Shown: positions 32 to 52,986 of the stretch, piece by piece
How positions within the stretch are numbered: position 1 is the stretch's first letter
Layout of the letters: the number at the start of each line of letters is the position of its first letter
Source: an uncultured Poribacteria bacterium
GTDB lineage: Bacteria; Poribacteria; WGA-4E; WGA-3G
Length of the DNA: 64,000 bases
Direction of reading: 5' to 3'
Assembly (NCBI GenBank): GCA_951813545.1
Contig: OX638352.1
Coordinates: forward strand, 4,867,966-4,931,965
Notes under the pieces: model-generated
The model's database searches: none
Told to the model about the DNA's origin: nothing
What the model saw: the letters and a program-made list of their open reading frames with translations, nothing else
Made by a program: the position numbers and the translations under genes

Positions 32-3000
32 TTATGGCGTTTCATCAAGCGGGAAACGGAGTACACCACGACGGAGCGTCCCGACATAAAGCGTGTTATC
101 ATCAACAGTAAAGGAGATGATCGTGCTTGGAACTTCTGGCGTCATCTGTTTCCATGTGCTCGAATTCTCTGTCAATTCATACACCTGTCGTTCCGTTGCA
201 CCATATAGTGTTGTACCGTCTACCGCAAATTTCTCTATCACCAGTGGCGCGCCTTCCGCATCGGTTACTTTATGCCAACGCGTCCCATCGCTTGCATAAG
301 CGACACCTTTATCTGTTGCTACATAAACAGTTGATCCAGCGAAGACGATTGTGTTGTAGGCGGCAACAGAAAATGGGAGATCTGCGGTGACATCATTCCA
401 GGTATCCCCTTCATCAAACGATTGCATGAGGTGTCCATCTTGTTTACCAACATAGAGGGTTTTACCGGACACTGCAAGTTTGACACCGAGAGATTGAATA
501 AGATCATTCGCCTCAGCGTACTCAGCAGAATAGAGGTTAGAAAGATTAGGGGGTTCGGCTTCATCTTTCAACCCCGTGTCATACCATTCAGTCATACCGG
601 GTTTCCATCTGAAAAGCCGCTGCTCGTATTCGACATAGTAGGTATCATCACTAACAGCAAAGTCACCAAAAAACGACATCATACCGGATGATGCTGGGTC
701 TTGGAGAGCCTTATTGAGTGCTTCGTTTTTCTGTCGCTGAAAATCAATGTTATTGTTAAGTGCCTCATTTAACTGATCAGGATCGATATCCATGAGTGCC
801 CTACCTAACTGCTCAGGATCAAGTTCTTCAATTTCTTGCTTACTCTTATCAGTGACTGCTGCCAGTATGGTCTTGAGCATTGCTTCGTCAGGCGTTATCG
901 TCATCTGGACCGTATTACCTCGACCGACATGCCCAAAAGCGGGCATGTCACGAATAAACTTTATGCGACTGCCCTCGGTAGATAGTCGAAGCAGCGGTGA
1001 AGGTGAATTCATTTGATTTCCCCTCTTCGCATAGAGAACACCGTCATAAGCCTTAATAATAACACCGGCATCAATACCGCCGGGGAGCGGTGTCCACGAC
1101 TCACCACCGTCTATTGAAGTGACAAACCCATTCGTTGAATTTGCGTAGAGTTTACCGTTAATAGCGATCAATGTGTTAACGGTCGTGTCCACGAATCCTG
1201 TATTAAACTGATGCCACGATTTACCGCCGTCGGTTGTCCGCTGAATCCCGGGCGGGACACCTCTATAGAAGGTGTTCTTATCTAACATCAGCACAGGTGG
1301 GGCGATCCCGTAATCCCCGAGCTTTAAATCTAAGGAATTCCACGTCTCTCCGGTATTTATAGAGTAGAAAAGTTCTCCGTTCGCATCTACCACCATCACC
1401 CTTTCTGCTGCTGCGACTATCTTGATTTTCGAGAACATCTCCATATCGAATCCAAATCCAACTGGAAATCGACCCTTTCGGTTCCTCTGTTTCTCATTCT
1501 CTAATCTTTCCCACGGATCTATAGAATACCAAGAGTCGCCTGAATCTGTTGAACGGTAAAGCGACCACCATGCGTTATTGGTCATTCCTGATTTAGATTG
1601 CATCTCTGCATCTCTAGCTGCAGCATAAAGCCGGTGCTCTGCAACTACCAAAGCATAGATAGTCGGTTTCTCCGTGCTTACCCCTTCTGGACGAATAGAC
1701 ACTCTTTCCCACGTCCCAGCACTCAGACGATAGAGCCCGTTATTGGTGCCAGCAAATACGGTGTTTTTGACAACGGCGAGTGCGTGAATCCTCTTGGCAT
1801 CCAATCCATCTTTCAGGGATATCCATGATGAACCGCTATCTTGGGAATGATAAACTCCCTCAGTAAGCCCGAGATAAAAGCCTGCGTCGGTTATCACGAA
1901 GCCTGCCGGCACGCCTTTTGGATGGCTGCCGAGCGAGTTCCATGTGCTACCACTATCGGTAGAAGTTAATATTTCCGTGTCAGTAGCGACATAAAGCGTC
2001 TCGCTGCGCTCTACCATTTGTCCGCCACTCATCATCCAATCTTGCACGCTGCGTGAGGTTTCGGTTCCGGCGTTAACAAGTTTCCATGCGCGCCGATCGT
2101 CCGACAATTTGTAAAGACTTGTGGGTGTCCCTGCGTAAACAGCCCCACCTATTGTGGCGAAGAGAGTGTTGACTGCGGCTCCCTCAGGTCCTTTTGTTTG
2201 TATCCACTGCGGTTTCGGTGTTGAAACTTCTGTTTCGTCAACGCGTGCTGCAGCGAAGAGCCGAGCGTCCGGTTTCTGGCCGGCACCCGGGTTTTTACCG
2301 GGGGTAGCCGAACGACCTGCCTGATTCCGAATTGCGGGTTTTGCGGGTGACTCTAAGACAAAAGCTGCCTCAATAATCTCAACCGTCCGTTCCGATGTGG
2401 CGTTTAAATCGTAAGGTTTCTGGAAGCGAGAGAGGTATTGTGTACCAACACCCATCAGTAGGAAAATCAGAACCGCCGAAGCGGCAGAAAGCCCCCATGG
2501 AACCATGGGGTTATTTGCAGCAGGGGCGGTGGGGGCAATACGGGATATCTCCCGCATAATGTTTTCTGTCAATTGCGTAGGCAGTTGGAAACTGCCGAGG
2601 TTTTGTCGGATCATATTTTCTTCCTTCTTTAGACGATTTCGTGCACGGCTAAGCCTGCTTTTAACGGTATTTGGAGAGACACCGAGAAATTCGGAAATGG
2701 TTTTGATTGTCATTTCACCGAGGTAATGAAGTGTCATTACTGTCCTTTCACTCTCAGGCAGTTTTTGGAGCAGTTCCTTGACGACTTCACGACGCGTCTC
2801 ATCGGCTTCGGCTTCCTGTTTCTGTGCCACATATCGAGAGTATGACCCGTGATTTACCTCACTCATATCAGTGACCTCCAAGGATTGTTCCGGTAAGGAT
2901 TTCTTTTGGAACCAGTCAGAGCACAAGCGTGACGCGATGACATAAAGCCATCCTCCAAACAAGTTGTGATTTTTTAATGTTTCGAGTTTCTGGTATGCCC

Positions 3001-3163
3001 TGAGAAACGCGTCCTGTGTAATCTCTTGTGCGATGTGAAAATCACCAATTTTCCGCCACGCGAGGGCATGCACGCCTTTCTGATACTTGTTGACGAGAAG
3101 CGCGAACGCCTCTTGGTTGCCTTGTAGTACCTGTTGAATGAGGTGCGCATCTTTCTGTTCCAT
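32..3163 (-). CDS. ECF-type sigma-70 factor (regions 2 and 4) fused to a TM helix and a C-terminal BNR/Asp-box beta-propeller extension (paralog A)
   Basis: The N-terminus has sigma region 2 (LAWRKIGDFHIAQEITQDAFLRAY) and a region 4 HTH (ERTVMTLHYLGEMTIKTISEFLGVSPNTVKSRLSRARNRL). A hydrophobic TM segment (LSAASAVLIFLLMGVG) follows. The extracytoplasmic part carries many S-x-D-x-G-x-(T/S)-W Asp-box repeats, e.g. STDSGSTW, SQDSGSSW, TTDGGKSW, SIDGGESW and FDEGDTW. Confidence 0.75.
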   Translation of the reverse strand: MEQKDAHLIQQVLQGNQEAFALLVNKYQKGVHALAWRKIGDFHIAQEITQDAFLRAYQKLETLKNHNLFGGWLYVIASRLCSDWFQKKSLPEQSLEVTDMSEVNHGSYSRYVAQKQEAEADETRREVVKELLQKLPESERTVMTLHYLGEMTIKTISEFLGVSPNTVKSRLSRARNRLKKEENMIRQNLGSFQLPTQLTENIMREISRIAPTAPAANNPMVPWGLSAASAVLIFLLMGVGTQYLSRFQKPYDLNATSERTVEIIEAAFVLESPAKPAIRNQAGRSATPGKNPGAGQKPDARLFAAARVDETEVSTPKPQWIQTKGPEGAAVNTLFATIGGAVYAGTPTSLYKLSDDRRAWKLVNAGTETSRSVQDWMMSGGQMVERSETLYVATDTEILTSTDSGSTWNSLGSHPKGVPAGFVITDAGFYLGLTEGVYHSQDSGSSWISLKDGLDAKRIHALAVVKNTVFAGTNNGLYRLSAGTWERVSIRPEGVSTEKPTIYALVVAEHRLYAAARDAEMQSKSGMTNNAWWSLYRSTDSGDSWYSIDPWERLENEKQRNRKGRFPVGFGFDMEMFSKIKIVAAAERVMVVDANGELFYSINTGETWNSLDLKLGDYGIAPPVLMLDKNTFYRGVPPGIQRTTDGGKSWHQFNTGFVDTTVNTLIAINGKLYANSTNGFVTSIDGGESWTPLPGGIDAGVIIKAYDGVLYAKRGNQMNSPSPLLRLSTEGSRIKFIRDMPAFGHVGRGNTVQMTITPDEAMLKTILAAVTDKSKQEIEELDPEQLGRALMDIDPDQLNEALNNNIDFQRQKNEALNKALQDPASSGMMSFFGDFAVSDDTYYVEYEQRLFRWKPGMTEWYDTGLKDEAEPPNLSNLYSAEYAEANDLIQSLGVKLAVSGKTLYVGKQDGHLMQSFDEGDTWNDVTADLPFSVAAYNTIVFAGSTVYVATDKGVAYASDGTRWHKVTDAEGAPLVIEKFAVDGTTLYGATERQVYELTENSSTWKQMTPEVPSTIISFTVDDNTLYVGTLRRGVLRFPLDETP

Positions 3164-9071: not shown

Positions 9072-9220
9072 GGCGAGGATACAATCCTCGCCAGCAGTGA
9101 TGGAGGTTTTTACTTCTAAGGTTTCTGCTTAAAGAGGCGAGGATACAATCCTCGCCAGCAGTGATGGAGGTTTTTACTTCTAAGGTTTCTGCTTAAAGAG
9201 GCGAGGATACAATCCTCGCC
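9072..9220. repeat. Tandem repeat, 64-bp unit in about 2.9 copies, each carrying a family-1 REP hairpin (GGCGAGGATACAATCCTCGCC)
   Basis: The unit aaagaggcgaggatacaatcctcgccagcagtgatggaggtttttacttctaaggtttctgctt is repeated at 9067, 9131 and 9195. Confidence 0.85.
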
Positions 9221-9383
9221 AGCAGTGATGGAGGTTTTTACTTCTAAGGTTTTCCGCCCCTACGGGGAAACCTGGATTTTTTGTCCACGCGCTGCTATAA
9301 ACATGCTGAAGAAACACCCAACCAAATAAACCTTACAGGACTGAAGAAAGGGCTTAGGGTATACACGGTTTTTACCTAAGATC

Positions 9384-13985: not shown

Positions 13986-14099
13986 TTTTCAAAATCTCCT
14001 TAGGGTGTTGTATATTTTAGGTTTCCTATTGGATGGCACAGACTAACAGTCTATGCTACAACCGCACAACCTAACAGGTTATGCTACAGGTTAATGACA

Positions 14100-17000
14100 T
14101 TAGTCGGCTTCATCAATTATGAAACGTAGCACGCCGTGCCCAGGTGTCCCAACATAAAGTGTGTTGCCATCAACAGTAAGAGAACTAATCTCGCTCGGAA
14201 CTTCCGGTGTGACCTGTTTTGCTATGCTTGAATTCTCTTTCAATTGATATATCTGTTGCTCAGTTGCACCGTATACCGTTGTGCCGTCCACTGCCATTTT
14301 TTCTATGACAAGCGGTGTGCCTTCCGCATCGGTTGCCGTGTACCAGCGGATCCCATCGCTTGAATACGTAACACCTTTATCGGTTGCCACGTAAAGCGTT
14401 GGTCCGGCGAAGGCGATAGCCTTGAATTGGGTGACAGAAAACGGGAGGTCTGTCGTGACATCGTTCCAAGTGTCTCCTTCATCAAACGACTGAAGGAGGT
14501 GTCCATCCCGTTTGCCAACGTAAACAGTTTTACCTGAAACTGCGATTTTGAAATCAAGGGAACCCTGATCTTCAATGCCAGCGAAAGAATGAATAGACTC
14601 CCCTTCATCTGCTAAGCCAGTATTGAACCATTCAGTCATACCGGGCTTCCACCTGAAGAGTTGCTGGTTATACTCCATATAGTAAGTACTACCGCTGACA
14701 GCGAAACTCCCGAAATATGCCTGAATCATTTTAACGAGACCTTCCTCTATAGTCTCATTAGCAACTGTGCTAAGTAGATCCATATCGAAATCTTCAGGTT
14801 TTAATCCCGGACTTTCCTCAATGTTTTCCTGAAGTTCATCTTGTACGGGTTCCGGAAGGGCGTTTTTGAATGTTTCAACGATCAGTTTTTCAAGGTCTAT
14901 CCCCTCTACACTTGGCATTTCAGGGACAGGTACTAACCCGTCATCCTCAGCAGATACGCGGAAAAGTTGCGGCAATGTCCCGTTGACACCTTTGACATAG
15001 AGAATATCGTTAAATTCCATCATACCCGTGAGAGTTTCAGGACAATGTAAAACAGGTGTCCACGATTCACCATCATCAAACGAGACCACAAGTTTTCCCC
15101 ATGTTTTTGCGTAGAGCGTATTATTGGCATAGACCAACTTGTCTACACCCGTCCTCACCAATCCAGTGTTAAACGGATGCCACGTTTTGCCTGCATCGGT
15201 CGTGCGCTGAATCCCTAATGGGCTACTACTTTTGTAAAAGGTGTTCACATCCGCTATGACAGCGGTGGGAGTGCCTCCTATAGCTGCCGCTACGACACGG
15301 GTGGAAGGACCTGCTATAGTTGCGGCACCTGGACCTAAAGATATCCATGTTTCCCCGGCATCACTTGAGTAATAACTCTCATCGCCATATACGACTAAAA
15401 GTCTTTCTTGCGCTGCCACCATTTTGACGCTGGCAGTCTTTTCCGTTTCTGAGTTGTCATCCACTTTTGGGTTGTCAGTTCCAACGGTAAAAATAAATCC
15501 ATCGCTTTCCACGGAAACTGTTTTTGGGAAATCTATCGCTTGCCACGAATCTCCGAGGTCTGTTGAACGGTAAAGCGACGGAGAGGTATTAAATACCGAC
15601 ATTGACACGGAGGTCGCAAGTTTCTTATTTTCAATCTCCTCTCCGACGGCAACATAGAGTCGGTGTTCAGCACTTGCCAATGCGAGAATATTCTCGGTTT
15701 CACCTACGGGTAATTGCTCCCAGCCTTCCGAACTGTGGCGATAAAGCCCTTTATCCGTTCCAACAAAGAGAGTATCTGCAATAGCGGCGATTGCCTGAAT
15801 TTTCCTATCGGTTAGGTTTTCGTCGGTAAGAGATGTCCACGATTTACCGGCATCCACAGAGCGGAATACGCCATCAACAAGCCCCAAGTACATTGTAATG
15901 TTGGCTTGCGCCCCAAGGGCATCATCCGTTATGATAGTGCCAATTAATTGCCCTTCTGGACGTGTTCCCAATGAATTCCATGTTCTCCCTCTATCTGCGG
16001 AAGCAAGTACTTCGGTATCGGAAAAGATATAGAGGGTATCCTCATGTTCTGTTATTTGCCACGATTCATTAATAGACATGTTCGTATTAGCGGGTATCCA
16101 TGTGCTTCTATCGTCCGTTAATCTATAGAGGTCCGCGCCAGCTCTGGCATAAACGTCGCCGTTAGATGCCATGAAGAGGTTATTGACTACTCCCCCTTCG
16201 GGGCCCTTCGCTTGTGTCCATTGGGTCTTCGGTGTTGAGACTTCTGCCGTATCGACTGGCAGTGTGGCAAAAAGCGATTCGTCGGATCTCTGACCTGCGC
16301 CTGGACTTTTGCCAGGGATAGCCGAGCTTCCTGCCTGACTCCGAACTGCTGGCTTTGCTGGAGAGTCCACAACAAAAACCGCATCAATAAGCTCAACCGT
16401 CGGTTCCGAGGTGGCACTCAGATTGTAGGGTTTTTGAAAGCGGGAGAGATACTGCGTGCCAACACCCATCATTAAGAAAATCAAGATAGCGGAGGCAGCA
16501 GAGATTGCTAAGGGTGCGACCGGTTTACTCACAGCAGGTGGAACGGGTGCTATACGTGAAACTTCCTGCATAATGTTATCCGCTAAGTTATCAGGGAGTT
16601 GGAAGCTGCCGAGGTTCTGCTGAATTACGTCTTCCTCTTTCCGCAAACGGTTGCGTGCGCGGCTGAGGCGGCTTTTGACGGTATTCTGGGAGACACCGAG
16701 GAACTCACTGATGGCTTTGATTGTCATTTCACCGAGGTAATGGAGCGTCATCACCGTCCGTTCGCTTTCCGGTAATTTCTTGAGCAGCTCCTTGACGACC
16801 TCGCGGCGCGTTTCGTCGGCTTCGGCTTCCTGTTTTTCTGCTACATATTGAGAATATGACACTTTGTCCACCTCGTTTGAATCGGCAGTATCAAGGGATT
16901 CCATGGGTATGCGGTTTTTTCGGAGCCAATCAAGGCACTCGCGGGCTACGATAACGTAAAGCCATCCGCTAAACGCGTTAGGGTCCTTCAATGTCCGTAG

Positions 17001-17177
17001 TTGCCGGTACGCCTTGAGAAACGCGTCCTGCGTAAGTTCTTGGGCGATGTGAAAATCACCGATTTTCCGCCACGCCAGCGCGTGAACCCCTTTTTGATAT
17101 TTCTTGACTAAGGGACTGAACGCTTCCTGGTTCCCTTGCAATACCTGCTGAATGAGTTGCGCATCGCTCTGTTGCAT
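14100..17177 (-). CDS. ECF sigma / TM / Asp-box beta-propeller fusion, paralog C
   Basis: Same architecture as paralog A: region 2 LAWRKIGDFHIAQELTQDAFLKAY, region 4 HTH, a TM segment, and Asp-box repeats such as SADRGRTW, SVDAGKSW, STDLGDSW, TTDAGKTW, FDDGESW and FDEGDTW. Confidence 0.75.
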   Translation of the reverse strand: MQQSDAQLIQQVLQGNQEAFSPLVKKYQKGVHALAWRKIGDFHIAQELTQDAFLKAYRQLRTLKDPNAFSGWLYVIVARECLDWLRKNRIPMESLDTADSNEVDKVSYSQYVAEKQEAEADETRREVVKELLKKLPESERTVMTLHYLGEMTIKAISEFLGVSQNTVKSRLSRARNRLRKEEDVIQQNLGSFQLPDNLADNIMQEVSRIAPVPPAVSKPVAPLAISAASAILIFLMMGVGTQYLSRFQKPYNLSATSEPTVELIDAVFVVDSPAKPAVRSQAGSSAIPGKSPGAGQRSDESLFATLPVDTAEVSTPKTQWTQAKGPEGGVVNNLFMASNGDVYARAGADLYRLTDDRSTWIPANTNMSINESWQITEHEDTLYIFSDTEVLASADRGRTWNSLGTRPEGQLIGTIITDDALGAQANITMYLGLVDGVFRSVDAGKSWTSLTDENLTDRKIQAIAAIADTLFVGTDKGLYRHSSEGWEQLPVGETENILALASAEHRLYVAVGEEIENKKLATSVSMSVFNTSPSLYRSTDLGDSWQAIDFPKTVSVESDGFIFTVGTDNPKVDDNSETEKTASVKMVAAQERLLVVYGDESYYSSDAGETWISLGPGAATIAGPSTRVVAAAIGGTPTAVIADVNTFYKSSSPLGIQRTTDAGKTWHPFNTGLVRTGVDKLVYANNTLYAKTWGKLVVSFDDGESWTPVLHCPETLTGMMEFNDILYVKGVNGTLPQLFRVSAEDDGLVPVPEMPSVEGIDLEKLIVETFKNALPEPVQDELQENIEESPGLKPEDFDMDLLSTVANETIEEGLVKMIQAYFGSFAVSGSTYYMEYNQQLFRWKPGMTEWFNTGLADEGESIHSFAGIEDQGSLDFKIAVSGKTVYVGKRDGHLLQSFDEGDTWNDVTTDLPFSVTQFKAIAFAGPTLYVATDKGVTYSSDGIRWYTATDAEGTPLVIEKMAVDGTTVYGATEQQIYQLKENSSIAKQVTPEVPSEISSLTVDGNTLYVGTPGHGVLRFIIDEAD

Positions 17178-17741: not shown

Positions 17742-17875
17742 ATAGGACTTACGCAAAATTCCATCATTTGCTTGCGGAATTGGAAGGAGAGGAAGATTGG
17801 AAGATTGAAGGAAGTCTCCATTCTTCCTCTCCTTCCATTCTTTCCTCCATCAATATCTACGTTGTGCGTAAGTCC
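17742..17875. mobile_element. MITE (~134 bp) bounded by the IS701-like TIR (ataggacttacgca ... tgcgtaagtcc)
   Basis: Inverted 13-14 bp termini match the TIR of the IS at 59994-61085. The interior is a GGAAG/CTTCC-rich palindromic low-complexity sequence. Confidence 0.45.
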
Positions 17876-17962: not shown

Positions 17963-18135
17963 CCCTCTTTTGTAGCATAGGCTGTTAGCCTGTGTCCATG
18001 TATTCCTGTAGCATAGGCTGTTAGCCTGTGTCCGTGTATTCCTGTAGCATTGGAAGGTGTGAAACTCACCGAAAAATCCCTTGATAGATATAGCACGCCG
18101 CTACGATGCCCAGGCTAACAGCCTATGCTACAGAA
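17963..18135. repeat. Family-4 REP cluster: two tandem 37-bp units and an inverted copy (core CTGTAGCATAGGCTGTTAGCCTGTG)
   Basis: Related copies at 14037-14095 and 55318-55345. Confidence 0.7.
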
Positions 18136-18260
18136 GATGATTTAAAATAAAATAGGGGTGGTTTTACCACCCCTATTTAACATTTCACGGGCATTCAGGC
18201 GTGAAGCCCCCTGCTTTAGCAGTGGGAGGAAAGCCTGCTAACCCATTGTGTCAAAAAAAC

Positions 18261-18289
18261 TTGACCATTACGAAAGAATGTAGTATAAT
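18261..18289 (+). promoter_or_regulatory. Near-consensus sigma70 promoter upstream of tnpB (TTGACC-N17-TATAAT)
   Basis: ttgacc at 18261-18266 and tataat at 18284-18289 with exactly 17-nt spacing. A structured 5' UTR follows, with a hairpin at about 18305-18345. Confidence 0.5.
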
Positions 18290-18385
18290 AATCACATCAG
18301 GTTGGCAAGCATACAACGCGTAGTTTCTCAACTACGTGCTTGCCTCCCACGTTGTAGGGGATAAATGCCTGATACCTGATATACC

Positions 18386-19648
18386 ATGCATTTAACATTT
18401 AGATACCGTGTGTATCCGACGCAAACGCAGGCAACCACATTATTAGCGTGGTTTGACCACTTGTGTGAACTCCAGAACGCTGCGCGCAACAATCGCAAGT
18501 TCGCCCATGAGACAGAAGGTCGTTTCGTCACGCACAATGAGCAAGAGAAACTTTTGAAGGTTGCGCGTGAGAAGTATGACGATTTCCGTGAAGTGCCTCA
18601 AGACTTTCAAGTTTCTATCCTCAAACGCGTTGAGAAAGCCTTTGATGCGTTCCGTAGGCGTTGTAAGGAAGGTGCGGCGAAAAAAGGGTATCCTCGCTAC
18701 AAAAGGCGTGTCCGTTCTCTAACGTGGTGCTTGCGAAAGCACAAACGCAAAACAGGTGAACGTATCCGCCAAAATCCGATAATAGCAACCGATTTTAGGC
18801 ACAATCGCTTAAAAGTGCCAAAGTTAGGCGAAGTCAAAATCTACATGCACCGACCCTTACAAGGTGACCCGAAAGAAGTCACGATCGTCAAGAAAGCCAG
18901 CGGTTGGTATGCTCATATCTCTTCTGAGATACCGGATATGCCGAAAGTTGAACCGACAGATGCTATCGCAGTTGATGTCGGCGCGACCCACTACCTGACC
19001 ACCTCTGAAGGTGAAAAAGAAGACAATCCGCGTTGGTATCGTCAAGCAGAAGGTTTGCTCCGAAAACACTCTAAAGACCTTTCTCGAAAGAAAAAAGGTA
19101 GCAACCGTAGAAAGAAACAACAACACAAACTCGCTTTACACCATGAACGGACGACAAACAAACGCAAAGACTTTATCGGTAAACTCGTTTACAAACTCTA
19201 CCACCATCAGAAAAACAATGTATTAGTGGCAGAAGATTTACGCGTATCTAACATGGTAAAGAACCAACACCTCAGCAAGAGCATTTCCGATGCGTCTTGG
19301 GCAACCTTCTTTAAGTGGTGTGCTGACATAGCCGAAAGAGACGGTCTGCATTTCCACCAAGTTGACCCCAAGAACACTTCGCAAACTTGCTCCGCTTGTG
19401 GTGAGAAATCGCAAAAGAAACTCTCTTTGGCGATTCGCACCTTTGAGTGTCAGTTTTGTGGCACTTCGTTAGACAGAGACCACAACGCTGCTATAAACAT
19501 ACTTCTTAGGGCAGCTGCGGCCCTTCGTGGAGAGCGGTGGGTTTCCACCCTCTATGAAGCGAGAAACAAGAACGAAGCACAAGACGAAGGCTTGCTGAAC
19601 GCAACACAACTTTTGTTGTTTGACGCCATCACAAGCCCAAGTCTTTAG
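18386..19648 (+). CDS. tnpB: TnpB (IS605/IS1341-family OrfB) RNA-guided nuclease-like protein
   Basis: The N-terminus FRYRVYPTQTQATTLLAWFDHLCELQNAARN is typical of TnpB. It has a RuvC-like core and a C-terminal zinc finger CSACGEK...CQFCG. No tnpA is adjacent. Confidence 0.85.
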   Translation: MHLTFRYRVYPTQTQATTLLAWFDHLCELQNAARNNRKFAHETEGRFVTHNEQEKLLKVAREKYDDFREVPQDFQVSILKRVEKAFDAFRRRCKEGAAKKGYPRYKRRVRSLTWCLRKHKRKTGERIRQNPIIATDFRHNRLKVPKLGEVKIYMHRPLQGDPKEVTIVKKASGWYAHISSEIPDMPKVEPTDAIAVDVGATHYLTTSEGEKEDNPRWYRQAEGLLRKHSKDLSRKKKGSNRRKKQQHKLALHHERTTNKRKDFIGKLVYKLYHHQKNNVLVAEDLRVSNMVKNQHLSKSISDASWATFFKWCADIAERDGLHFHQVDPKNTSQTCSACGEKSQKKLSLAIRTFECQFCGTSLDRDHNAAINILLRAAAALRGERWVSTLYEARNKNEAQDEGLLNATQLLLFDAITSPSL

Positions 19649-19714
19649 GCTTGGGTAGTTGACAGAAATAGGACTTACGCATCACCGATTTTTAGGGTAG
19701 GTGATTTCATCAGG

Positions 19715-20755
19715 TTAGTTCTTTGAAACCTTGATGGCTCCCCACGTCACAGCCATCTTATCTAAAGGTTCCACCGGCAGCGAATCACCAACCCACCGAG
19801 GCGAAGTCGGCACACTATCCGACAAAACCACTAAACGCCGAACTTGCTGCGACCCAAGCGAATAGATGTAGAGACCATTATTACCAAAACCTATATCCGC
19901 AGAAAAGACAAGATATTTGCCATTCGGCGACCAATCTACTTGAAAGAACTCCCGCAAACCACGATTGGCTATTTCCAAGTGGTTTATCCCATCAGCATTC
20001 ACAATAAATATGCCTTCATGAAGGTGAGTGACCACGGGGCGAGGGTGCCTCCCATCAACATCGGCAACAAATACACCTTCATGAACAGGGGTGTAGGCTA
20101 TCTTCTTACCGTCCGGGGAGAACGCATAGAACGGGTAACGGTCTAAGAAACCCGCACGTTCAGGGAATGGCGAGTGTTTCTTCGGTTTCTCCTGTCCATT
20201 GACATTCGACTCCCAGATCTCCTGATGCCTGTCCGTTGAAGTGAGATTGTAGAACACGGATTGCGCATCTGGTGCCCAGACGAAACCTATTGGATTCTTA
20301 CCAATGGGGTGGAGTAACTTTCGCTTCCGTCGTCCATCCGGCGAAATTAGAAAGATTTCTGTGTTCACATCGCGTCCACCTCTTATCCTTTGCGGACTGC
20401 CAGCATACACAATCCAACGTCCATCTGGAGACCAAGAAATATCGACATAAGAATGGACTTGCAAGATGATGGACCGAATTCTCTTACCGGTGCGAAGGTC
20501 TCGGATATGGAGAACATTACGGCGGTCCGGGTCGCCATCGACCGCTGCCAAAAAGCGACCATCCGGCGAAGGCGTAGAAATACCTTCATCCGCAATGCGC
20601 GTAGGTGTAGGGACGGTATCATTGGGACGTATCATGTAGGTCGTGCTACGATAGGAGTAGACAATCATACCTTCTGCCCAACAGAGCAGATTCGGGCAAA
20701 CACCCGATAGAAGCATTATTACCGAAAACAGAAAAGTCAAGCGATACGTGTTCAT
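19715..20755 (-). CDS. Secreted PD40/TolB-like beta-propeller repeat protein
   Basis: Has a signal peptide (MNTYRLTFLFSVIMLLSGV) and repeated SPDG/WSPDG motifs such as FSPDGKKIAY and WSPDGRWIVY. Confidence 0.6.
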   Translation of the reverse strand: MNTYRLTFLFSVIMLLSGVCPNLLCWAEGMIVYSYRSTTYMIRPNDTVPTPTRIADEGISTPSPDGRFLAAVDGDPDRRNVLHIRDLRTGKRIRSIILQVHSYVDISWSPDGRWIVYAGSPQRIRGGRDVNTEIFLISPDGRRKRKLLHPIGKNPIGFVWAPDAQSVFYNLTSTDRHQEIWESNVNGQEKPKKHSPFPERAGFLDRYPFYAFSPDGKKIAYTPVHEGVFVADVDGRHPRPVVTHLHEGIFIVNADGINHLEIANRGLREFFQVDWSPNGKYLVFSADIGFGNNGLYIYSLGSQQVRRLVVLSDSVPTSPRWVGDSLPVEPLDKMAVTWGAIKVSKN

Positions 20756-32296: not shown

Positions 32297-32465
32297 ATAT
32301 AGGACTTACGCAGACAGGCGATAAATCACGTTACTACAAACAGACATACCTTGGAAGAACGTGTGTTTCTCAAAAGCAGTCCGGTTCGTAGTCGCGCAAT
32401 TCTGCGGCGTACTCGCCCAAATGCGATGTGAATTATTGTGCCTTGCGTAAGTCCTGCTATATATA
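32297..32465. mobile_element. MITE (~169 bp) with IS701-like TIRs
   Basis: atataggacttacgca (32297-32312) and tgcgtaagtcctgctatatat (32444-32465) are inverted copies of the TIR of the IS at 59994-61085. Confidence 0.5.
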
Positions 32466-35066: not shown

Positions 35067-38000
35067 GTTTCAATTCTCTACTGGTTCGATTAAAAACTAA
35101 ATAGTGGTCGGCTATCGGCAGTCGGCAAAGAAGTTTCTATTCCATACTGGTTCGATTAAAAGCAGATGCACTATGACTATTTGGAGAAGTATCGTAGTTT
35201 CTATTCTATACTGGTTCGATTAAAAGTGTAAAAACCACCTGCCGTAAGAACTGCCAATTCAACGTTTCTATTCCATACTGGTTCGATTAAAAGATCAGAA
35301 GTTAATTTCAACCAAGACGCACCGGGATAAGTTTCTATTCCATACTGGTTCGATTAAAAGGGTACCTCTTCCTTTTTGTTACTAGAGAAGATGTGGTTTC
35401 TATTCCATACTGGTTCGATTAAAAAGTCTTCATCACTCATGCCATCATAGAAATTTAATGTGCGTTTCTATTCCATACTGGTTCGATTAAAAGGTCGATC
35501 TTTTCTATGAACGACTGAATCTCCGAGCACGTTTCTATTCCATACTGGTTCGATTAAAAGGCGGTCCAAAATAATTTCCCCCACCTTACAACATTTAGAT
35601 GTTTCTATTCCATACTGGTTCGATTAAAAGTCAACCCATGCCCGATCGTATCCGTCTTGCCTCATGTTTCTATTCCATACTGGTTCGATTAAAAGAGCAA
35701 CAGACTTAACACGTCCACCGTGCATCTCGAGACCGTTTCTATTCCATACTGGTTCGATTAAAAGCTACAGGCAGTTAAGGACATGGCGGACGTAGCACGT
35801 TTCTATTCCATACTGGTTCGATTAAAAGGCGGATGTAGCCCTCTGGTGATTGCCACACACAGGAGTGTTTCTATTCCATACTGGTTCGATTAAAAGGACG
35901 TGGGAAATGTGATAAGCCTCTAAGCAAGAAGCCGGTTTCTATTCCATACTGGTTCGATTAAAAGTTCGGTTGGGAGGAGTTTATGAAAGAGAGGAAAAGA
36001 GAAGTTTCTATTCCATACTGGTTCGATTAAAAGAGAGGCACTCAAAGCGAATCCGCCTACGGAAGTCCAGTTTCTATTCCATACTGGTTCGATTAAAAGC
36101 GAAAACAAAATGGGGGCAGCTTTTATTTAATAGTTTCTATTCCATACTGGTTCGATTAAAAGTGTTCATGAACAAATGAACGTCTCTGTCTATGAACGTT
36201 TCTATTCCATACTGGTTCGATTAAAAGTGATCTTCACTGGCAGAACGGAGGTGAAAAATGACAACCTTGTTTCTATTCCATACTGGTTCGATTAAAAGAC
36301 TCGTTCCGTTTCGGTATGGCACAACGAAATTCTGGTTTCTATTCCATACTGGTTCGATTAAAAGCGCTGAGTTCAGGGTTAGGGAGGCTTTGTTTCACGT
36401 TTCTATTCCATACTGGTTCGATTAAAAGTAGAATCCAACTCCGCTTTCCAGTATCTCATCAATAATGTTTCTATTCCATACTGGTTCGATTAAAAGTATC
36501 GCTTTTGCGATCGTCTCGGAAACGGCAAAGGCAAGTTTCTATTCCATACTGGTTCGATTAAAAGGAAAACCTGCCTTTAGCGAAAGGAGTTGATGAAGAT
36601 GAGTTTCTATTCCATACTGGTTCGATTAAAAGCAACTCACCTTGCTTATCTGCTCTATCGCTAAATATGTTTCTATTCCATACTGGTTCGATTAAAAGTT
36701 AATCCTGCATTTCCGTGCCGCTGGACTCTAAAAGTTTCTATTCCATACTGGTTCGATTAAAAGGGCGGTATCACACACAGACGGATCAGGGCGATATACG
36801 TTTCTATTCCATACTGGTTCGATTAAAAGGGTCATCAGTCTCTTATCAGCACTGCCCCATCGGATACGTTTCTATTCCATACTGGTTCGATTAAAAGGAC
36901 GTAGACCTGCGTATACTGCCGATCAAACCAGAAGTTTCTATTCCATACTGGTTCGATTAAAAGTTATGACTGGTACGTTAGGCCGACCGACGACGCAGCG
37001 TTTCTATTCCATACTGGTTCGATTAAAAGGCGTCGCCGCTTTCGGCTCTTTCGATACTTTCTGACAAATGTTTCTATTCCATACTGGTTCGATTAAAAGT
37101 CGCAGGCACGGCAACCGATCCGCAGATACGTTACATGTTTCTATTCCATACTGGTTCGATTAAAAGGGACGTGTTGCCTGCGTGGAACCCGGATGAGAAT
37201 GTTTCTATTCCATACTGGTTCGATTAAAAGATTAGTAACCGCTTTCGTGTATCCAACACGATAAAGTTTCTATTCCATACTGGTTCGATTAAAAGGCTTG
37301 CCAAAGTTCGTCACGCTCATGCTTGTCTTGAATGTTTCTATTCCATACTGGTTCGATTAAAAGCGGTGCGTACAGCTGAGCACCCGTCAATTCAAACTTT
37401 TGGTTTCTATTCCATACTGGTTCGATTAAAAGCTTCCTATTCCGCCGCAACCCTCCGGTAGTTTCCTATAAGTTTCTATTCCATACTGGTTCGATTAAAA
37501 GCACTCGCTATTTCAACGATTGAACCAACGCTTGACGCAGTTTCTATTCCATACTGGTTCGATTAAAAGCGTTCACAGCACGCCACACGTCCGCCAGTTG
37601 AAAGCAGTTTCTATTCCATACTGGTTCGATTAAAAGGATGCTAAGCGTGAGTGTTCTCCTCAGCAAGAGCGTGTTTCTATTCCATACTGGTTCGATTAAA
37701 AGGGTCCCCGATCGGGGAAATGATATTGACTTGATTTCGTTTCTATTCCATACTGGTTCGATTAAAAGTAAGCGATCTGAGTGTTATAATCATTTAACTG
37801 ACACGTTTCTATTCCATACTGGTTCGATTAAAAGACGATGATAAACTGCTTGATGCATGTTTGGCACTCAAGTTTCTATTCCATACTGGTTCGATTAAAA
37901 GTGCATATCGTGCAATTGACTTCTCCCACACCTAAGTTTCTATTCCATACTGGTTCGATTAAAAGTGTGATAGGTTCGTTCACAAATGCGTATTGCGGGT

Positions 38001-41000
38001 GTTTGTTTCTATTCCATACTGGTTCGATTAAAAGAATGGCGATCTGCGTTACAGGGCTTTTTTTGTCATTCCAGTTTCTATTCCATACTGGTTCGATTAA
38101 AAGTGTAGGGAGTAATCACGAGGTTTATTTTCTATCTAAGTTTCTATTCCATACTGGTTCGATTAAAAGTATTGCAAAGATGTTCCATTTGTGAACATCT
38201 ATATGAAGTTTCTATTCCATACTGGTTCGATTAAAAGCGACTCAGAAAACAGGGTCGTAGGAGCTGGGGGGCGTTTCTATTCCATACTGGTTCGATTAAA
38301 AGATCTCGTTTCGCAGGGCTATGACGAAGACACAATCAAGTTTCTATTCCATACTGGTTCGATTAAAAGGCACGTACTTAATGCGTCCTCTGAAGCCCTT
38401 GTACTTTTTGTTTCTATTCCATACTGGTTCGATTAAAAGTCGATGCTCGTCCAATTTTGAAGCTTACCATCTCCGCAGTGTTTCTATTCCATACTGGTTC
38501 GATTAAAAGACAACACTTACTTCCAGGATGAGGACTACTACATAACGTTTCTATTCCATACTGGTTCGATTAAAAGTCAGATTGGTTCCCCTGATCATAA
38601 TGCTTATACGACCTATCTTGTTTCTATTCCATACTGGTTCGATTAAAAGTCATCACCCACAAGTTCCATCGTCTGAATCAAAGGGGTTTCTATTCCATAC
38701 TGGTTCGATTAAAAGGCCGCTTGAATCGCTGCTAAACAAGTGCCAGGAGTGTTTCTATTCCATACTGGTTCGATTAAAAGGAGGCTGTACTGGGTGCATC
38801 GCTTCGCCCATTGATCCAAACGAGTTTCTATTCCATACTGGTTCGATTAAAAGACGCGTCGTCGACAGGCTTTACATACCAATCGTAGGTTTCTATTCCA
38901 TACTGGTTCGATTAAAAGGACTGAAAGCGTAACTCTCCGACCATATTCGTAGCAGGTTTCTATTCCATACTGGTTCGATTAAAAGCAGTTCGGCTGGGAG
39001 AAATTTATGGAAGGAGTCAAAAGGCAAGTTTCTATTCCATACTGGTTCGATTAAAAGCACCAACAGTCCCACCTTCAGTCCCCCAGAGAAAGTGTTTCTA
39101 TTCCATACTGGTTCGATTAAAAGATGCAGGAGAAGGAGACAGTAAGGGATCACGTGAAGGGTTTCTATTCCATACTGGTTCGATTAAAAGTTTGGGCAAA
39201 ACGTTCAAGCATAGCATCCAGAAAAACGTTTCTATTCCATACTGGTTCGATTAAAAGTGTACAGTCTCGGTAAGGCACGTATCACACTTCCTGCGTTTCT
39301 ATTCCATACTGGTTCGATTAAAAGAACATGCCCGTCCGCTGCAGGAAGATGGTACGGAAGTTTCTATTCCATACTGGTTCGATTAAAAGTATTATTGCTT
39401 GTGTCGGTGCGTCCGACTTTTCTGTGTTTCTATTCCATACTGGTTCGATTAAAAGTCGTAACAACGTGTAGTAACTTCTGCAAAATTGCGGTTTCTATTC
39501 CATACTGGTTCGATTAAAAGGCTATTGGAGTTGCTTATTATGAAACTTGAAAAAGAGTTTCTATTCCATACTGGTTCGATTAAAAGTTAGAAAACACAAT
39601 ATCATCCTCCTCCACCAGTATGTTTCTATTCCATACTGGTTCGATTAAAAGAAACGCTCTGTCCAGTAAGTCTTTATCCACGCCCACAAGTTTCTATTCC
39701 ATACTGGTTCGATTAAAAGTGGTGTTTCTACCCCCGCTATCAACCGCCTAACGAATGTTTCTATTCCATACTGGTTCGATTAAAAGAGAAACTGCTTCTG
39801 TAACCGCTTACTAATAATGATGCGTTTCTATTCCATACTGGTTCGATTAAAAGAGGAGATGCCCAATGTGCGTTGGTGGGAAAATATGTGTTTCTATTCC
39901 ATACTGGTTCGATTAAAAGGCAAGGTGCTTGGTGCTGGTGGTGCAGGGTAAGACTGTTTCTATTCCATACTGGTTCGATTAAAAGTTATCAAGTCGAAGA
40001 AGCAATCGCTTAAACCTAAGTTTCTATTCCATACTGGTTCGATTAAAAGTCTATGAAATGATCGTCGTCGCTCAACTCGTACCGTTGTTTCTATTCCATA
40101 CTGGTTCGATTAAAAGGCGCCTCTTGCAGTTGTTGGGCTGTATCCGAGAGTTGCGTTTCTATTCCATACTGGTTCGATTAAAAGTGAACCAAGCCGTACG
40201 AACGACACAGACATTTGAATGTTTCTATTCCATACTGGTTCGATTAAAAGTTTGCCGCGTGGCATTTTCTACACACTTCGCGAGAGTTTCTATTCCATAC
40301 TGGTTCGATTAAAAGGTCTTTGAGAAACGTCAACGCGTTAGCTATCTTTGGTTTCTATTCCATACTGGTTCGATTAAAAGTCCTGCATCGAAGATTCATC
40401 GAGCGCAAGTTCCATGTTTCTATTCCATACTGGTTCGATTAAAAGGCGAATAGAGATGTGGACTGTTCGGGATTCCTTAGTGTGTTTCTATTCCATACTG
40501 GTTCGATTAAAAGTTAAGGTTGAGGCAGGTGATGTTGATGTTCAGTCCTAGTTTCTATTCCATACTGGTTCGATTAAAAGTCAAGCACTCCATTCAAAAA
40601 AACCGGCTCCTACAACAAGCGTTTCTATTCCATACTGGTTCGATTAAAAGATCCACGCCCACAAAGGAGCATAGACAATTTCCTTTTTTCTATTCCATAC
40701 TGGTTCGATTAAAAGAATTGCCAAGAGAGTATCTCAGCACCTTCAATACGTAAGTTTCTATTCCATACTGGTTCGATTAAAAGTTCCATCTCTTCAAATG
40801 AATAACCTCCGTGGAAGTTTCTATTCCATACTGGTTCGATTAAAAGGCGCGTCCTTCACGGGCGCGTCAAATCCTGCAAGGTGCTGTTTCTATTCCATAC
40901 TGGTTCGATTAAAAGTTGCCAAACCAGACAATCAGCATGTACTGACCCAAGAATTGTTTCTATTCCATACTGGTTCGATTAAAAGTCCTGTTCCCGATCG

Positions 41001-44000
41001 TGGCAATGATATTGATCTGATCTGTTTCTATTCCATACTGGTTCGATTAAAAGTTGATAGTCATGGGTTACCTGTTGACGTTGCTAAGTTTCTATTCCAT
41101 ACTGGTTCGATTAAAAGGTACCCATTTTCCGTCTTACCGTTAGCAACGTCAACGTTTCTATTCCATACTGGTTCGATTAAAAGCGCACAACTGATGCAGT
41201 TCCGCCCCCCCCAGGAATGTTTCTATTCCATACTGGTTCGATTAAAAGAAAGATCTGAATTAAACTGCTATCTTCACATTCTGTCGTGTTTCTATTCCAT
41301 ACTGGTTCGATTAAAAGCATGTCAGGCGGTGCCATGATGCACATTAACTTCAAGATCAGGGTTTCTATTCCATACTGGTTCGATTAAAAGTCATCGAACC
41401 CATCCACGACATCGACGAACGCCGCGTTTCTATTCCATACTGGTTCGATTAAAAGGGGTATCGTCCGGCATAGCGCTCACAGGCGTAGAGGGTTTCTATT
41501 CCATACTGGTTCGATTAAAAGATCAATAAAATTTTCTTCAAAGGTGCTGTGCAGTGTTTCTATTCCATACTGGTTCGATTAAAAGTCCCTTCTATTAAGG
41601 TATCCACAAGTTCATTCTGGTTTCTATTCCATACTGGTTCGATTAAAAGCCTGACAGCCACAATTATCGCAGACGTTGACAGCGTGGTTTCTATTCCATA
41701 CTGGTTCGATTAAAAGCCGATGGCAAGGGAATAAACCCCCTTGCCACAACAAAGTTTCTATTCCATACTGGTTCGATTAAAAGTAACTTCGGATCGTCTT
41801 CATCATCAAAGTCTTGTTGAGTTTCTATTCCATACTGGTTCGATTAAAAGGCGAAACGAGATCAGCATACGCGTTCGACGCGCCCCAGTTTCTATTCCAT
41901 ACTGGTTCGATTAAAAGGAGGTTATCCAAAGTTACTACGACCGTAACGAAAAAGGTTTCTATTCCATACTGGTTCGATTAAAAGGCAGGCATCAAGCGAA
42001 ACTTACGGAGGTTATCACAGTTTCTATTCCATACTGGTTCGATTAAAAGTTATTCGGTGCGTCATAAAGCACGCGACCATTTGCAAGTTTCTATTCCATA
42101 CTGGTTCGATTAAAAGGTCTTACCAAACGGATGCCTCTGGGACAGATGAAGGTTTCTATTCCATACTGGTTCGATTAAAAGTTTATCGGGGGGAATTACC
42201 CAGAGGGCTATGGCGGCGTTTCTATTCCATACTGGTTCGATTAAAAGAACAGGGCGGAGTCCTCTTGGGGATTGTTGGTCACGTTTCTATTCCATACTGG
42301 TTCGATTAAAAGGCGGGAACATCAGAAACGGTATGAGGAAATCCGTATAGGTTTCTATTCCATACTGGTTCGATTAAAAGACGCGCCGAGAGAGACGCAC
42401 TGTACACACTTCGCAGTGGTTTCTATTCCATACTGGTTCGATTAAAAGATTAACACCTAAATCACTTTGAAACGTTTGACGTGGTTTCTATTCCATACTG
42501 GTTCGATTAAAAGGAGACATTCATACCGATGTCGATACCGATCTCTTGGGTTTCTATTCCATACTGGTTCGATTAAAAGCGGATACGGGCGGTGCTCTTA
42601 GAACTGTATATCTCGTGTTTCTATTCCATACTGGTTCGATTAAAAGGGGTTTCCTGACGCATAGTAATCCATTTTTTGATCTACGTTTCTATTCCATACT
42701 GGTTCGATTAAAAGAAAATTCAGAGTGTTACACCAAAGGGACACCTTTTCGAGTTTCTATTCCATACTGGTTCGATTAAAAGGTCAGGAAAGAAGATGAC
42801 GCAGGAGGGTTAAACGTTTCTATTCCATACTGGTTCGATTAAAAGTTCCCCGCACTGCCAAGATAAAGAAGAGCAATTTCATAGTTTCTATTCCATACTG
42901 GTTCGATTAAAAGCTGGTCAAAACTAGGCTCCCAACAACAACCAGTTAAGTTTCTATTCCATACTGGTTCGATTAAAAGTCACAAACTGAGCAGTGCCGA
43001 CAACCCACCTTGACATGTTTCTATTCCATACTGGTTCGATTAAAAGTCAAGGTCGTGGAAGGCAGGATAATCGTTTTCAAGATGTTTCTATTCCATACTG
43101 GTTCGATTAAAAGGGTACTTTCGAGAACCCTAATGCGACTTTTGATAGTCAAGTTTCTATTCCATACTGGTTCGATTAAAAGCGCACGCACGCCTGCAAC
43201 AGTCTCTCCGACTGTAATGTTTCTATTCCATACTGGTTCGATTAAAAGATAAACTTCTCCCAGCCAAACTGGGATGTCAACATACGATCATGTTTCTATT
43301 CCATACTGGTTCGATTAAAAGCTCCGCTTTCGGCCTTTGCGATAGCGTCTCCGAGATTGTTTCTATTCCATACTGGTTCGATTAAAAGATATGCTCCTCG
43401 CACGGTTCAGGCTGGGTGGCTTAGGTTTCTATTCCATACTGGTTCGATTAAAAGGACATAGCTACAAATATAGGAGGTATCAGCAGTGGGTGTTTCTATT
43501 CCATACTGGTTCGATTAAAAGTGAAATGATACAGGCATGGGCTTCTGGAGAGATGACAAGTTTCTATTCCATACTGGTTCGATTAAAAGACGTTTAGACG
43601 ACCGTTTACGATGATGCTTGCGAACGTTTCTATTCCATACTGGTTCGATTAAAAGTCCAGATATGGCAGTTGACACCGAGATTCACAGAATTGTTTCTAT
43701 TCCATACTGGTTCGATTAAAAGGTATGAGGAAATCCGTATAGCGGAAGCGACGTTGGAAGGTTTCTATTCCATACTGGTTCGATTAAAAGTATACAGCCA
43801 GCGGTACGGTAGAAGTTCAATATAGTGTTTCTATTCCATACTGGTTCGATTAAAAGCTTACACGTATCGACCGGCAGTGATACTCGATCTGATGTTTCTA
43901 TTCCATACTGGTTCGATTAAAAGAATATCTATGTCCTGCTCACTGACAGAAACATCCTGGTTTCTATTCCATACTGGTTCGATTAAAAGCCAAGAAATTA

Positions 44001-44322
44001 TACCAGCCACCCGTATCGGTCCAAGTTTCTATTCCATACTGGTTCGATTAAAAGCGAACTCAACTTACCGACAGCCGAATCGACATCATCAAGTTTCTAT
44101 TCCATACTGGTTCGATTAAAAGAGCGCACTTGGCGCGATGTGGTATCCCGATACATAAGAGTTTCTATTCCATACTGGTTCGATTAAAAGCACTCGAATC
44201 AATGCCCAAGCATCGCTTGATTTGACGTTTCTATTCCATACTGGTTCGATTAAAAGGTAAGTTGTAACAGCCTTGTTAGAACGTTTCGGAATGTTTCTAT
44301 TCCATACTGGTTCGATTAAAAG
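35067..44322 (-). CRISPR. CRISPR array with 139 copies of a 30-bp repeat (GTTTCTATTCCATACTGGTTCGATTAAAAG on the plus strand) and 138 spacers of about 34-42 nt
   Basis: Repeat starts were counted manually. The terminal repeat at 35067-35096 is degenerate (gtttcaattctctactggttcgattaaaaa). The leader-proximal perfect repeat at 44293-44322 abuts the cas2-side leader. Transcription is inferred on the minus strand, where the repeat reads CTTTTAATCGAACCAGTATGGAATAGAAAC and ends in GAAAC. Confidence 0.95.
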
Positions 44323-44579
44323 GCTCTACGAAAACCATGTATATATCATACAGAACTCCTGTGGGGCGTGTCAAGTCAATTTTACTTACTGCATGTTCTA
44401 AGACCAATTTGCTGTCGATCTTCGGTAGTGTAAATTCTCTGGGAGGTTGACGGCTCTTTACAAAGCGCGGGTTCGGACACTCATTTGACGAGAAATGACG
44501 GATGTGGTTACCTTTCAAAACCCTGATATAAGCGCGGTCGACAGCGGATTTTAGGTTTAAATTTCAGTACAAGTTACAC
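44323..44579 (-). promoter_or_regulatory. CRISPR leader
   Basis: A 257-bp non-coding segment between the cas2 stop and the first perfect repeat. The degenerate repeat at the opposite end of the array supports this as the leader side. Confidence 0.55.
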
Positions 44580-45947: not shown

Positions 45948-45984
45948 GCTTGGCTTACGGCACGGCGGCGTGTGCCTGCTACCT

Positions 45985-46494: not shown

Positions 46495-46520
46495 TTGTGG
46501 GTATCTCCATTTTGAATAGG

Positions 46521-48857: not shown

Positions 48858-48917
48858 AGATTTTTTCTCCGTAGGGGCGTGGTCCCCACATCCGATTTTG
48901 TTTCGTTTAAATGTTCC

Positions 48918-49544: not shown

Positions 49545-49562
49545 AAGGAAACCCCCTCAGCG

Positions 49563-49624
49563 GGCGAGGAAACCTCGCCCCTACGATATTTTACGGTTGA
49601 ATTGGACGAGGGGACCTCGCCCCT
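49563..49624. repeat. Two family-1 REP hairpins immediately upstream of the RAYT gene
   Basis: ggcgaggaaacctcgcccctacg (49563-49585) and gacgaggggacctcgcccctacg (49607-49629). Confidence 0.8.
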
Positions 49625-49632
49625 ACGATGTG

Positions 49633-51398: not shown

Positions 51399-51412
51399 GA
51401 TTAGTCCTCCTT

Positions 51413-52816: not shown

Positions 52817-52986
52817 AGCATTTATCTCCTTTCAAAACTACTATAAATATATTATATCCTGTTTACTAAATTAAGTAAAGTTAAAATTTATTTAGGTTTC
52901 TGCCGCGCCGAAACGAGGCGGATTTTGAGTTTTCACCGCTCTACCTAACCTACGGTTATACCTCATTTTTTATTCTTCAACTCATG

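Follow-up and report, generated by a model that had tools for sequence, protein, structure and literature searches.

A probable tnpB-only transposon of Candidatus Poribacteria with a predicted pseudoknotted leader RNA

The stretch of DNA analyzed here, referred to below as the window, comprises 64,000 nucleotides of contig OX638352.1 from an uncultured Poribacteria bacterium and contains a probable mobile element of the IS200/IS605 type that is built around a single tnpB gene. The gene (18386-19648, + strand) is an open reading frame (ORF) of 420 aa with Pfam matches to Cas12f1-like_TNB (2.2e-20), OrfB_IS605 (7.9e-19) and HTH_OrfB_IS605 (7.3e-5). Its closest natural relative of solved structure is the TnpB of ISDra2 (PDB 8bf8/8ex9/8h1j; E=1.3e-44, residues 5-379); the AI-designed nuclease 9yyg scores marginally above it (3.4e-46). 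The RuvC triad D197/E283/D365 aligns with D191/E278/D361 of ISDra2 TnpB, and so do the four cysteines of the zinc finger (C335, C338, C355 and C358; CxxC..CxxC). The protein therefore has what marks a TnpB, an OrfB_IS605 RuvC-like domain with the D-E-D triad and a zinc-ribbon (TNB), as the initial annotation of this DNA had claimed. Disruption of the RuvC residues, which that annotation had raised as a possible objection to its own reading, is absent: the triad is intact on alignment. By all sequence criteria checked, the product is a full-length TnpB that should be competent as a nuclease.

A clear relation between this gene and a single phylum emerged from the comparison with its homologues. 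A total of 3037 homologues was detected, the best 120 of which are 79-96% identical to the protein of the window, and all named sources among these 120 are Candidatus Poribacteria. A scan with one genome per species yielded 123 genomic relatives, all of them in metagenome-assembled genomes of Poribacteria. Single chromosomes carry at least 13 (OZ253447.1) or 9 (OX639973.1) copies, with flanks that differ from copy to copy; the gene for a 96%-identical protein, for instance, is neighboured by PhyH and glyoxalase genes, whereas the copy in the window lies between miniature inverted-repeat transposable elements (MITEs) and a beta-propeller gene. The many copies and the differing flanks point to a multicopy mobile family and not to a syntenic host gene. 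Among the homologues and genomes surveyed, the tnpB clade is confined to Candidatus Poribacteria, which are sponge symbionts, and has multiplied there to reach a dozen or more copies per genome. An exact-protein look-up returned no database record for the TnpB of the window or for the neighbouring beta-propeller protein, and our literature search found no paper that joins TnpB with Poribacteria.

We delimited the element by comparison with more than 80 Candidatus Poribacteria copies, which gave a span of 18185/18189-19663. A copy in another genomic context (L001) is 97.7% identical to the window, and the local alignment between the two covers exactly 18185-19664. The target site directly 5' of the left end (LE), the transposon-adjacent motif (TAM), is predicted to be TCAC (18185-18188, + strand). 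All 73 distinct copies have TCA, followed by C in 43 of them, by A in 28 and by T in 2; the bases at -1 and -2 before TCA show a T bias only, and the sequence further upstream is random. That TCAC belongs to the flank and does not constitute the first bases of the element is something we infer from the IS200/IS605 paradigm. The initial annotation had pointed to TTAC, the target motif of IS608-type elements. This has to be abandoned, for a motif of the TCAC/TCAA type precedes the LE in 73/73 distinct copies; the motif is TCAC here and TCA[C/A/T] family-wide.

The LE (18189-18260, + strand) contains a long imperfect hairpin (18196-18237) that is found in all subfamilies. Its outer stem is formed by CAGGC (18196-18200) and GCCTG (18233-18237), its inner stem by 18207-18214 and 18219-18226, with a C.T mismatch and the loop TTTA. 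The outer stem varies on both strands among the subfamilies (CGAGCA/TGCTCG, CGGTTTT/AAAACCG and CGGATT/AATCCG; judged by eye, with no formal count). Since this hairpin lies upstream of the promoter described below, it most likely works in single-stranded DNA, as a recognition site for the transposase TnpA. The right end (RE) has a hairpin of its own (19636-19655, + strand), with the stop codon TAG of tnpB in the loop and the same C-TTTA-G tip as in the LE. Both hairpins are present in all copies examined, and for the RE hairpin the changes on both strands were counted. The RE closes with the transposon-encoded motif (TEM) TTGAC (19659-19663, + strand), the final TGAC of which is kept in at least 90% of a 43-copy alignment and is to be compared with the (T)TCAC of the TAM. 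Conservation ends exactly at 19663, after ...CCCAAGTCTTTAGGCTTGGGTAGTTGAC. The element has neither terminal inverted repeats (TIRs) nor a target-site duplication, and its flanks are otherwise unrelated. Subterminal palindromes, insertion next to a motif and a TEM distinct from the TAM are the features by which tnpB-only (IS1341-type) members of the IS200/IS605 group are recognized, and all of them are found here.

The layout TAM-LE-...-RE-TEM follows the scheme given for the ISGst elements (10.1101/2023.03.14.532601). As the distance from the LE to the tnpB ATG is ~200 bp, there is no room for a tnpA gene inside the element. The earlier remark that tnpA is missing is thus correct for the element itself, but the absence is not a distinguishing trait: most tnpB genes sit in elements that lack tnpA (Meers et al. 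preprint, 10.1101/2023.03.14.532601).

The tnpB gene is preceded by a predicted sigma-70-type promoter, TTGACC-17-TATAAT (18261-18289, + strand), that matches 11 of the 12 consensus positions and would start transcription at ~18296. Matches of at least 9/12 were found twice, against 3.0 expected by chance. The consensus match alone is therefore at chance level, and the evidence lies in the conservation of the promoter at the same place in homologues. Of 78 distinct upstream regions of homologues, 41 have TTGACA and 14 have TTGACT at -35, 42 have TATAAT at -10, 69 keep the 17-nt spacer and 44 show a TGn extended -10. In 35 of these 78 regions the -10 hexamer and the ATG are 96 nt apart; overall this distance varies from 88 to 120 nt. 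The near-consensus promoter proposed in the initial annotation is thus backed by position, hexamers and spacer alike.

A guide-bearing RNA at the 3' end of tnpB is also reflected in the sequence comparisons. The scaffold of the omega RNA, or right-end element RNA (reRNA), is predicted at 19505-19663 (+ strand), across the 3' end of tnpB and into the RE; its 5' limit is uncertain. RNAalifold, applied to 43 copies, predicted hairpins at approximately 19508-19524, 19525-19562 and 19610-19621 in addition to the RE hairpin. In this fold 97.5% of the cells are paired, versus 36-48% in slid controls, and 8 of the 36 scaffold pairs show a compensatory change. A possible long-range pairing between 19483-19486 and 19658-19661 is invariant. 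Among 75 coding sequences the normalized synonymous-codon entropy falls to 0.11 at codons 381-400 (nt 19526-19585), compared with ~0.5-0.7 over most of the gene. The next 20 nt to the right of the element are the reverse case: among the right flanks of 80 homologous copies 79 are unique, and there is no conserved column. A constrained 3' region followed by a hypervariable flank fits a scaffold of ~160-180 nt that ends at 19663 and a guide that begins at 19664. The predicted guide, AGAAATAGGACTTACGCATC (19664-19683, + strand), would be flank that is read through from the scaffold; its length of 16-20 nt was assumed from characterized TnpBs. It coincides with a solo terminal repeat of an unrelated insertion sequence (IS). 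The sole match to TAM plus guide in the window is the occupied junction, which has TGAC in place of TCAC. No Rfam family reached its gathering score anywhere in the window, and a search of 18100-19750 relaxed to E<=10 gave no relevant match. Constrained synonymous sites, a predicted conserved fold and a variable guide together support the earlier proposal of an omega RNA at the 3' end of tnpB and the 15 nt downstream, and the lack of a conserved 3' RNA structure, which had been named as an objection to that proposal, was not what we observed.

A second stretch of low synonymous variation occurs in tnpB at 19286-19345 (entropy 0.26), especially at 19325-19345 (ATAGCCGAAAGAGACGGT), where third positions are nearly invariant. 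It lies ~320-375 nt upstream of the RE end. It might mark the start of the omega RNA or a site of processing, or contain an internal promoter.

The most conspicuous feature of the locus is located between the promoter and the gene. The ~90 nt at 18295-18385 (+ strand) are predicted to form a 5' leader RNA with three helices and a pseudoknot (PK), all on the + strand. Helix P1 joins 18295-18302 to one of two copies of a tandem CCTGATA heptamer, either 18367-18374 (copy 1) or 18374-18381 (copy 2), and the 5' strand pairs equally well with both. P2 is formed by 18304-18310 and 18338-18344, and P3 is a hairpin (18319-18325 with 18330-18336). The PK helix (18312-18318 with 18350-18356) crosses P2, and is followed by the conserved motif GGGGATAAA (18357-18365). 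The minimum free energy (MFE) of the leader is -33.7 kcal/mol (z = -3.05). In a MAFFT alignment of 36 copies 97% of the cells are paired, versus 26-46% for slid partners; compensatory changes occur in 19-20 of the 29 pairs, and the covariation score is 0.50 versus 0.05-0.13 for the slid partners. The PK helix was left out of the covariance model of the leader (R1) and is nevertheless paired in 95.6% of the cells in 76 distinct sequences, with a covariation of 0.77 versus at most 0.07 in slid controls and with four pair types at several positions. Wobble cells are divided into 58 G-U and 8 A-C, an excess which indicates that the sense strand is the folding strand. The structured leader in front of tnpB that the initial annotation mentioned in passing is thus strongly supported, both by its stability and by covariation.

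R1 matches directly before the ATG in every tnpB locus of the clade and also in a 53%-identical relative (L091) that appears to start with TTG, whereas none of 79 distant TnpB loci (<=41% identity, viral contigs) has a match. The architecture tolerates some variation: P3 accepts loop or tip insertions of ~28 nt in L038, L059 and L091 (L091:1374-1494), and the number of heptamers is four in L047 (2388-2489) and one in L071 (2414-2503). An additional helix, P4 (CUCCC/GGGGA, a possible pair of Shine-Dalgarno (SD) and anti-SD sequences), is mostly invariant, and its slid control performs nearly as well. A third partner for the tandem heptamers within the element was looked for and rejected, as the recurrent matches represent conserved coding sequence. 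No SD sequence is present within 12 nt of the tnpB ATG; the host genes in the window mostly have one of the GGAGG type. Neither the searchable TnpB literature nor Rfam yielded an account of a structured leader upstream of tnpB; such absence is not proof of novelty.

The LE and the leader share a further relation. LE nucleotides 18222-18234 (GTGGGAGGAAAGC) are 92% complementary over 13 nt to leader nucleotides 18338-18350 (GCTTGCCTCCCAC), i.e. to the 3' strand of P2 and the linker. The core GGGAGG/CCTCCC is conserved, and CCTACCC variants occur without compensatory change (by eye, no formal count). In read-through transcripts that enter from outside, such pairing could disrupt the leader fold and so guard against outside transcription.

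The leader is most likely a cis-acting 5' untranslated region (UTR) that keeps the translation of TnpB low or conditional, a reading that we hold at lower confidence than that of the element as a whole. The two interchangeable heptamers suggest two states. It is conceivable, and we put it forward tentatively, that the leader belongs to an undescribed class of cis-regulatory RNA of this TnpB clade, a two-state translational switch that is possibly read by TnpB or by a cellular signal and that would set the dose of the nuclease, beyond any passive role in stabilizing the mRNA.

The perfect hairpin upstream of the element deserves separate treatment. It has a stem of 13 bp and a loop of 3 nt, lies at 18150-18178, 7 nt outside the TAM, and had been likened to a subterminal hairpin of the IS200/IS605 type. 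The hairpin exists, but it is not subterminal, the true LE hairpin being that at 18196-18237. As the LE it was rejected: it is absent from all homologues, the copies diverge upstream of TCA[C/A], and the homology with L001 begins at 18185. The hairpin has a T-rich tail on the minus strand, and in silico removal of the element places it ~60 nt beyond the stop codon of the beta-propeller gene (19715-20755, minus strand). It probably represents the terminator of that gene, parted from it by the insertion, in which case transcription of the beta-propeller gene may now continue in antisense orientation into the omega RNA region and tnpB. Weak Rfam matches of the hairpin to sraA/STnc400 are far below threshold.

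The region is indeed rich in MITEs, as had been noted, but the TTAC they contain is part of the terminal repeat of a DDE-type IS and is unrelated to IS200/IS605. The parental IS of 1.09 kb (59996-61083) encodes a 337-aa DDE_5/DDE_Tnp_1 transposase and is bounded by the TIR GGACTTACGCA, usually after TA. Derivatives of the GGACTTACGCA type comprise the MITEs at 17745-17875 and 32302-32454 and solo ends at 19671, 20862 and 10998. The MITE beside the TnpB element (17966-18137, TIR TGTAGCATAGGCTGTTAGCCTG) belongs to a second family with a 27-nt TIR (TCTTTTGTAGCATAGGCTGTTAGCCTG) that is also present at 14039-14060 and 55319-55340, and carries an internal 36-bp tandem duplication of its left end. 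The possibility that the MITEs are derived from IS200/IS605 elements, as palindrome-associated transposable elements (PATEs), was rejected, since the TIR GGACTTACGCA bounds the DDE IS and the window has no second LE or RE.

Considering the ends, the gene and the RNAs together, we are quite confident that 18185/18189-19663 is an intact non-autonomous tnpB-only (IS1341-type) IS200/IS605 transposon, and we include in this reading the proposed mechanism and the leader. The internal sigma-70 promoter would start a single transcript at ~18296 that runs from the 90-nt leader through the tnpB ORF and the omega scaffold into the flank, ~16-20 nt of which serve as guide, and that would thus supply both the mRNA and the omega RNA. 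TnpB would bind and trim the scaffold-guide portion. Upon excision of the element by a Y1 TnpA acting in trans, the restored joint, in which TCAC is followed by AGAAATAGGACTTACGCA..., would be cut by TnpB and its omega RNA, and repair of the cut joint from a sister copy would retain the element. The empty site in the species of the window would read ...CATTTCAC followed directly by AGAAATAGG.... The occupied site would escape cutting because the RE ends in TGAC and not in TCAC. In the same transcript the leader would pair the 5'-terminal nucleotides of the mRNA and thereby protect it, while the leader helix would bury the region upstream of the SD-less ATG and so make translation damped or conditional.

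Several observations weigh against this reading. The promoter, the transcription start, the omega RNA and the leader are all predictions from sequence. Only modest covariation is seen in the 3' scaffold, part of which is also coding sequence. The function of the leader is deduced from anatomy only, and the LE demonstrates that the element can carry paired structure outside the predicted transcript, which most likely acts in single-stranded DNA. The 64-kb window holds one copy of the element only, with no second LE or RE motif. A tblastn search of the window and of 90 loci (L001-L090), with IS200 and IS608 TnpA queries, did not find a Y1 TnpA, which weakens the case for current mobility in this genome. 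Finally, a search for the empty site in metagenome contigs gave 0 matches.

Some of these points would fit a stranded relic, i.e. an element that is structurally intact but no longer expressed or mobilizable in this genome. Apart from the TnpA that was not detected locally, the intergenic setting is crowded with MITEs, and the -35 hexamer (TTGACC) departs from the TTGACA of the family consensus. However, the ORF is uninterrupted and differs in ~4% of its residues from a copy in another genome, and the RNA helices, the TAM and the TEM are all intact in this copy. Decayed copies look different, such as those with stop-containing or truncated ORFs at other loci (L025). We regard a relic as unlikely.

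The nature of the leader could also be more active than that of a passive UTR. It might be a ribozyme or of the riboswitch type, for instance the 5' part of an IStron-like intron, or a switch that senses a ligand or TnpB. Its fold is compact, pseudoknotted and strongly conserved, both alternative 3' partners covary with the 5' strand as expected of a two-state switch, and P3 accepts insertions of ~28 nt. Moreover, the IStrons of Clostridia, which combine a group I intron with tnpB and have a functional structured RNA as their 5' part, show that tnpB elements can bear 5' ribozymes (PMC13565253). The leader nevertheless has no match to Intron_gpI or to any other Rfam family at E<=10, group I introns and small ribozymes included. 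Its 90 nt are far below the size of a group I core. In addition, unlike in IStrons, an internal promoter precedes it; with this promoter situated between the LE and the leader, no upstream host exon directly adjoins the leader. No invariant core resembling a ligand pocket was identified. This explanation we consider quite unlikely.

The leader structure might, alternatively, act as single-stranded DNA and not as RNA, as an extended left-end signal for TnpA in peel-and-paste transposition. IS200/IS605 elements indeed transpose as top-strand single-stranded DNA, the LE hairpin upstream of the promoter has an outer stem that (by eye) varies on both strands between subfamilies, and the wobble asymmetry is the same for sense RNA and top-strand DNA, so that the two are inseparable by it. 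The position of the leader structure speaks for RNA, however, as it begins within 1-2 nt of the predicted start of transcription and extends up to the tnpB start codon, and its 58 G-T/U pairs would be weak in DNA. Recognition by the known TnpAs requires a single hairpin per end, a role that 18196-18237 fills. To our knowledge a pseudoknot ~110-200 nt inside the element has no precedent among TnpA substrates, judging from IS608 and ISDra2. A single-stranded DNA signal is thus very unlikely. Domestication, with an immobile TnpB that serves the host as a TldR-like or other regulator and whose strong promoter and leader reflect host control, would agree with the locus having a strong promoter of its own, the elaborate leader, the lack of a nearby tnpA and the single copy in the window, but it is hardly credible given an intact RuvC triad where TldRs are nuclease-dead, the many copies per genome with unrelated flanks, the retention of LE and RE hairpins, TAM and TEM, and hypervariable guides that have no fixed host target.

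The transposon reading that we prefer can be placed among the characterized systems. ISDra2 of Deinococcus radiodurans has a tnpA upstream of tnpB and TTGAT as TAM. The element described here resembles it in domain order, RuvC triad, zinc finger, a scaffold that covers the 3' end of tnpB and the RE, and a guide derived from the flank, whereas it differs in the lack of tnpA, in its TAM (TCAC/TCAA) and in having its own conserved promoter and a pseudoknotted leader. In IS200 (the stem-loop in the 5' UTR of tnpA), IS10 and IS50, RNA structure in the element's own mRNA limits the translation of the element's protein. These dampers are simple hairpins that sequester the SD sequence of a transposase mRNA, whereas the structure predicted here precedes an SD-less nuclease gene and is a three-helix pseudoknot in which the alternative partners are duplicated. 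TldR shares the TnpB fold and the adjacent guide RNA, whereas here the catalytic residues are intact, the locus belongs to a multicopy and apparently mobile family, and the guides are variable. In layout the element resembles the IS1341 group and the ISGst elements of Geobacillus stearothermophilus, which likewise have an LE hairpin, tnpB, an overlapping omega RNA and an RE hairpin (10.1101/2023.03.14.532601). Further shared traits are clade-specific, slightly differing TAM and TEM sequences, many tnpA-less copies per genome and a presumed mobilization in trans; the phylum and the TAM differ, and a conserved structured 5' leader is unmentioned in that study (10.1101/2023.03.14.532601).

Elsewhere in the window a CRISPR system and further repeats were observed. 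A very large CRISPR array (35067-44334, + strand) is built from a 30-nt repeat, GTTTCTATTCCATACTGGTTCGATTAAAAG, which is present in ~140 copies, and from spacers of ~34-40 nt. It adjoins a type I cas operon (44934-54540, - strand) that encodes Cas1, a Cas3 HD-helicase, a Cas7/DevR-like protein, a CXXC_CXXC large subunit-like protein and Cas6, and a degenerate pair of CRISPR repeats lies upstream of cas6 (53578-53677). A repeated motif ending in ...GTGACGTAACTTAGATTTCAAAAGGTTGCATTATTT (~50-68 nt each) occurs at 3188, 6517, 17203, 17578, 17681 and 21376. Its reverse complement, GCAAC-N18-CGTC, resembles a promoter of the extracytoplasmic function (ECF) sigma type. The motif is found upstream of three paralogous ~1025-aa fusion genes of ECF-sigma and beta-propeller (BNR/Sortilin) type (32-3163, 3370-~6500 and 14100-17177, - strand) and of other genes. 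A GC-rich hairpin like a repetitive extragenic palindrome (REP), GGCGAGG(N6)CCTCGCC, has nine intergenic copies, three of them in tandem at 64-nt spacing (9072-9230, 12703, 20907, 27782, 44866, 54588 and 57910).

As a TnpB locus the element is routine and well preserved, and the accessory leader RNA is its newly delineated part. The analysis corrects the element boundaries and shows the flanking hairpin and the MITEs to be unrelated to the element. What results is a cleanly bounded and apparently intact compact nuclease of 420 aa with a predicted TAM, scaffold and guide. In addition, an RNA that is backed by covariation and located between the predicted transcription start and an SD-less ATG provides a testable handle on the control of native TnpB expression.

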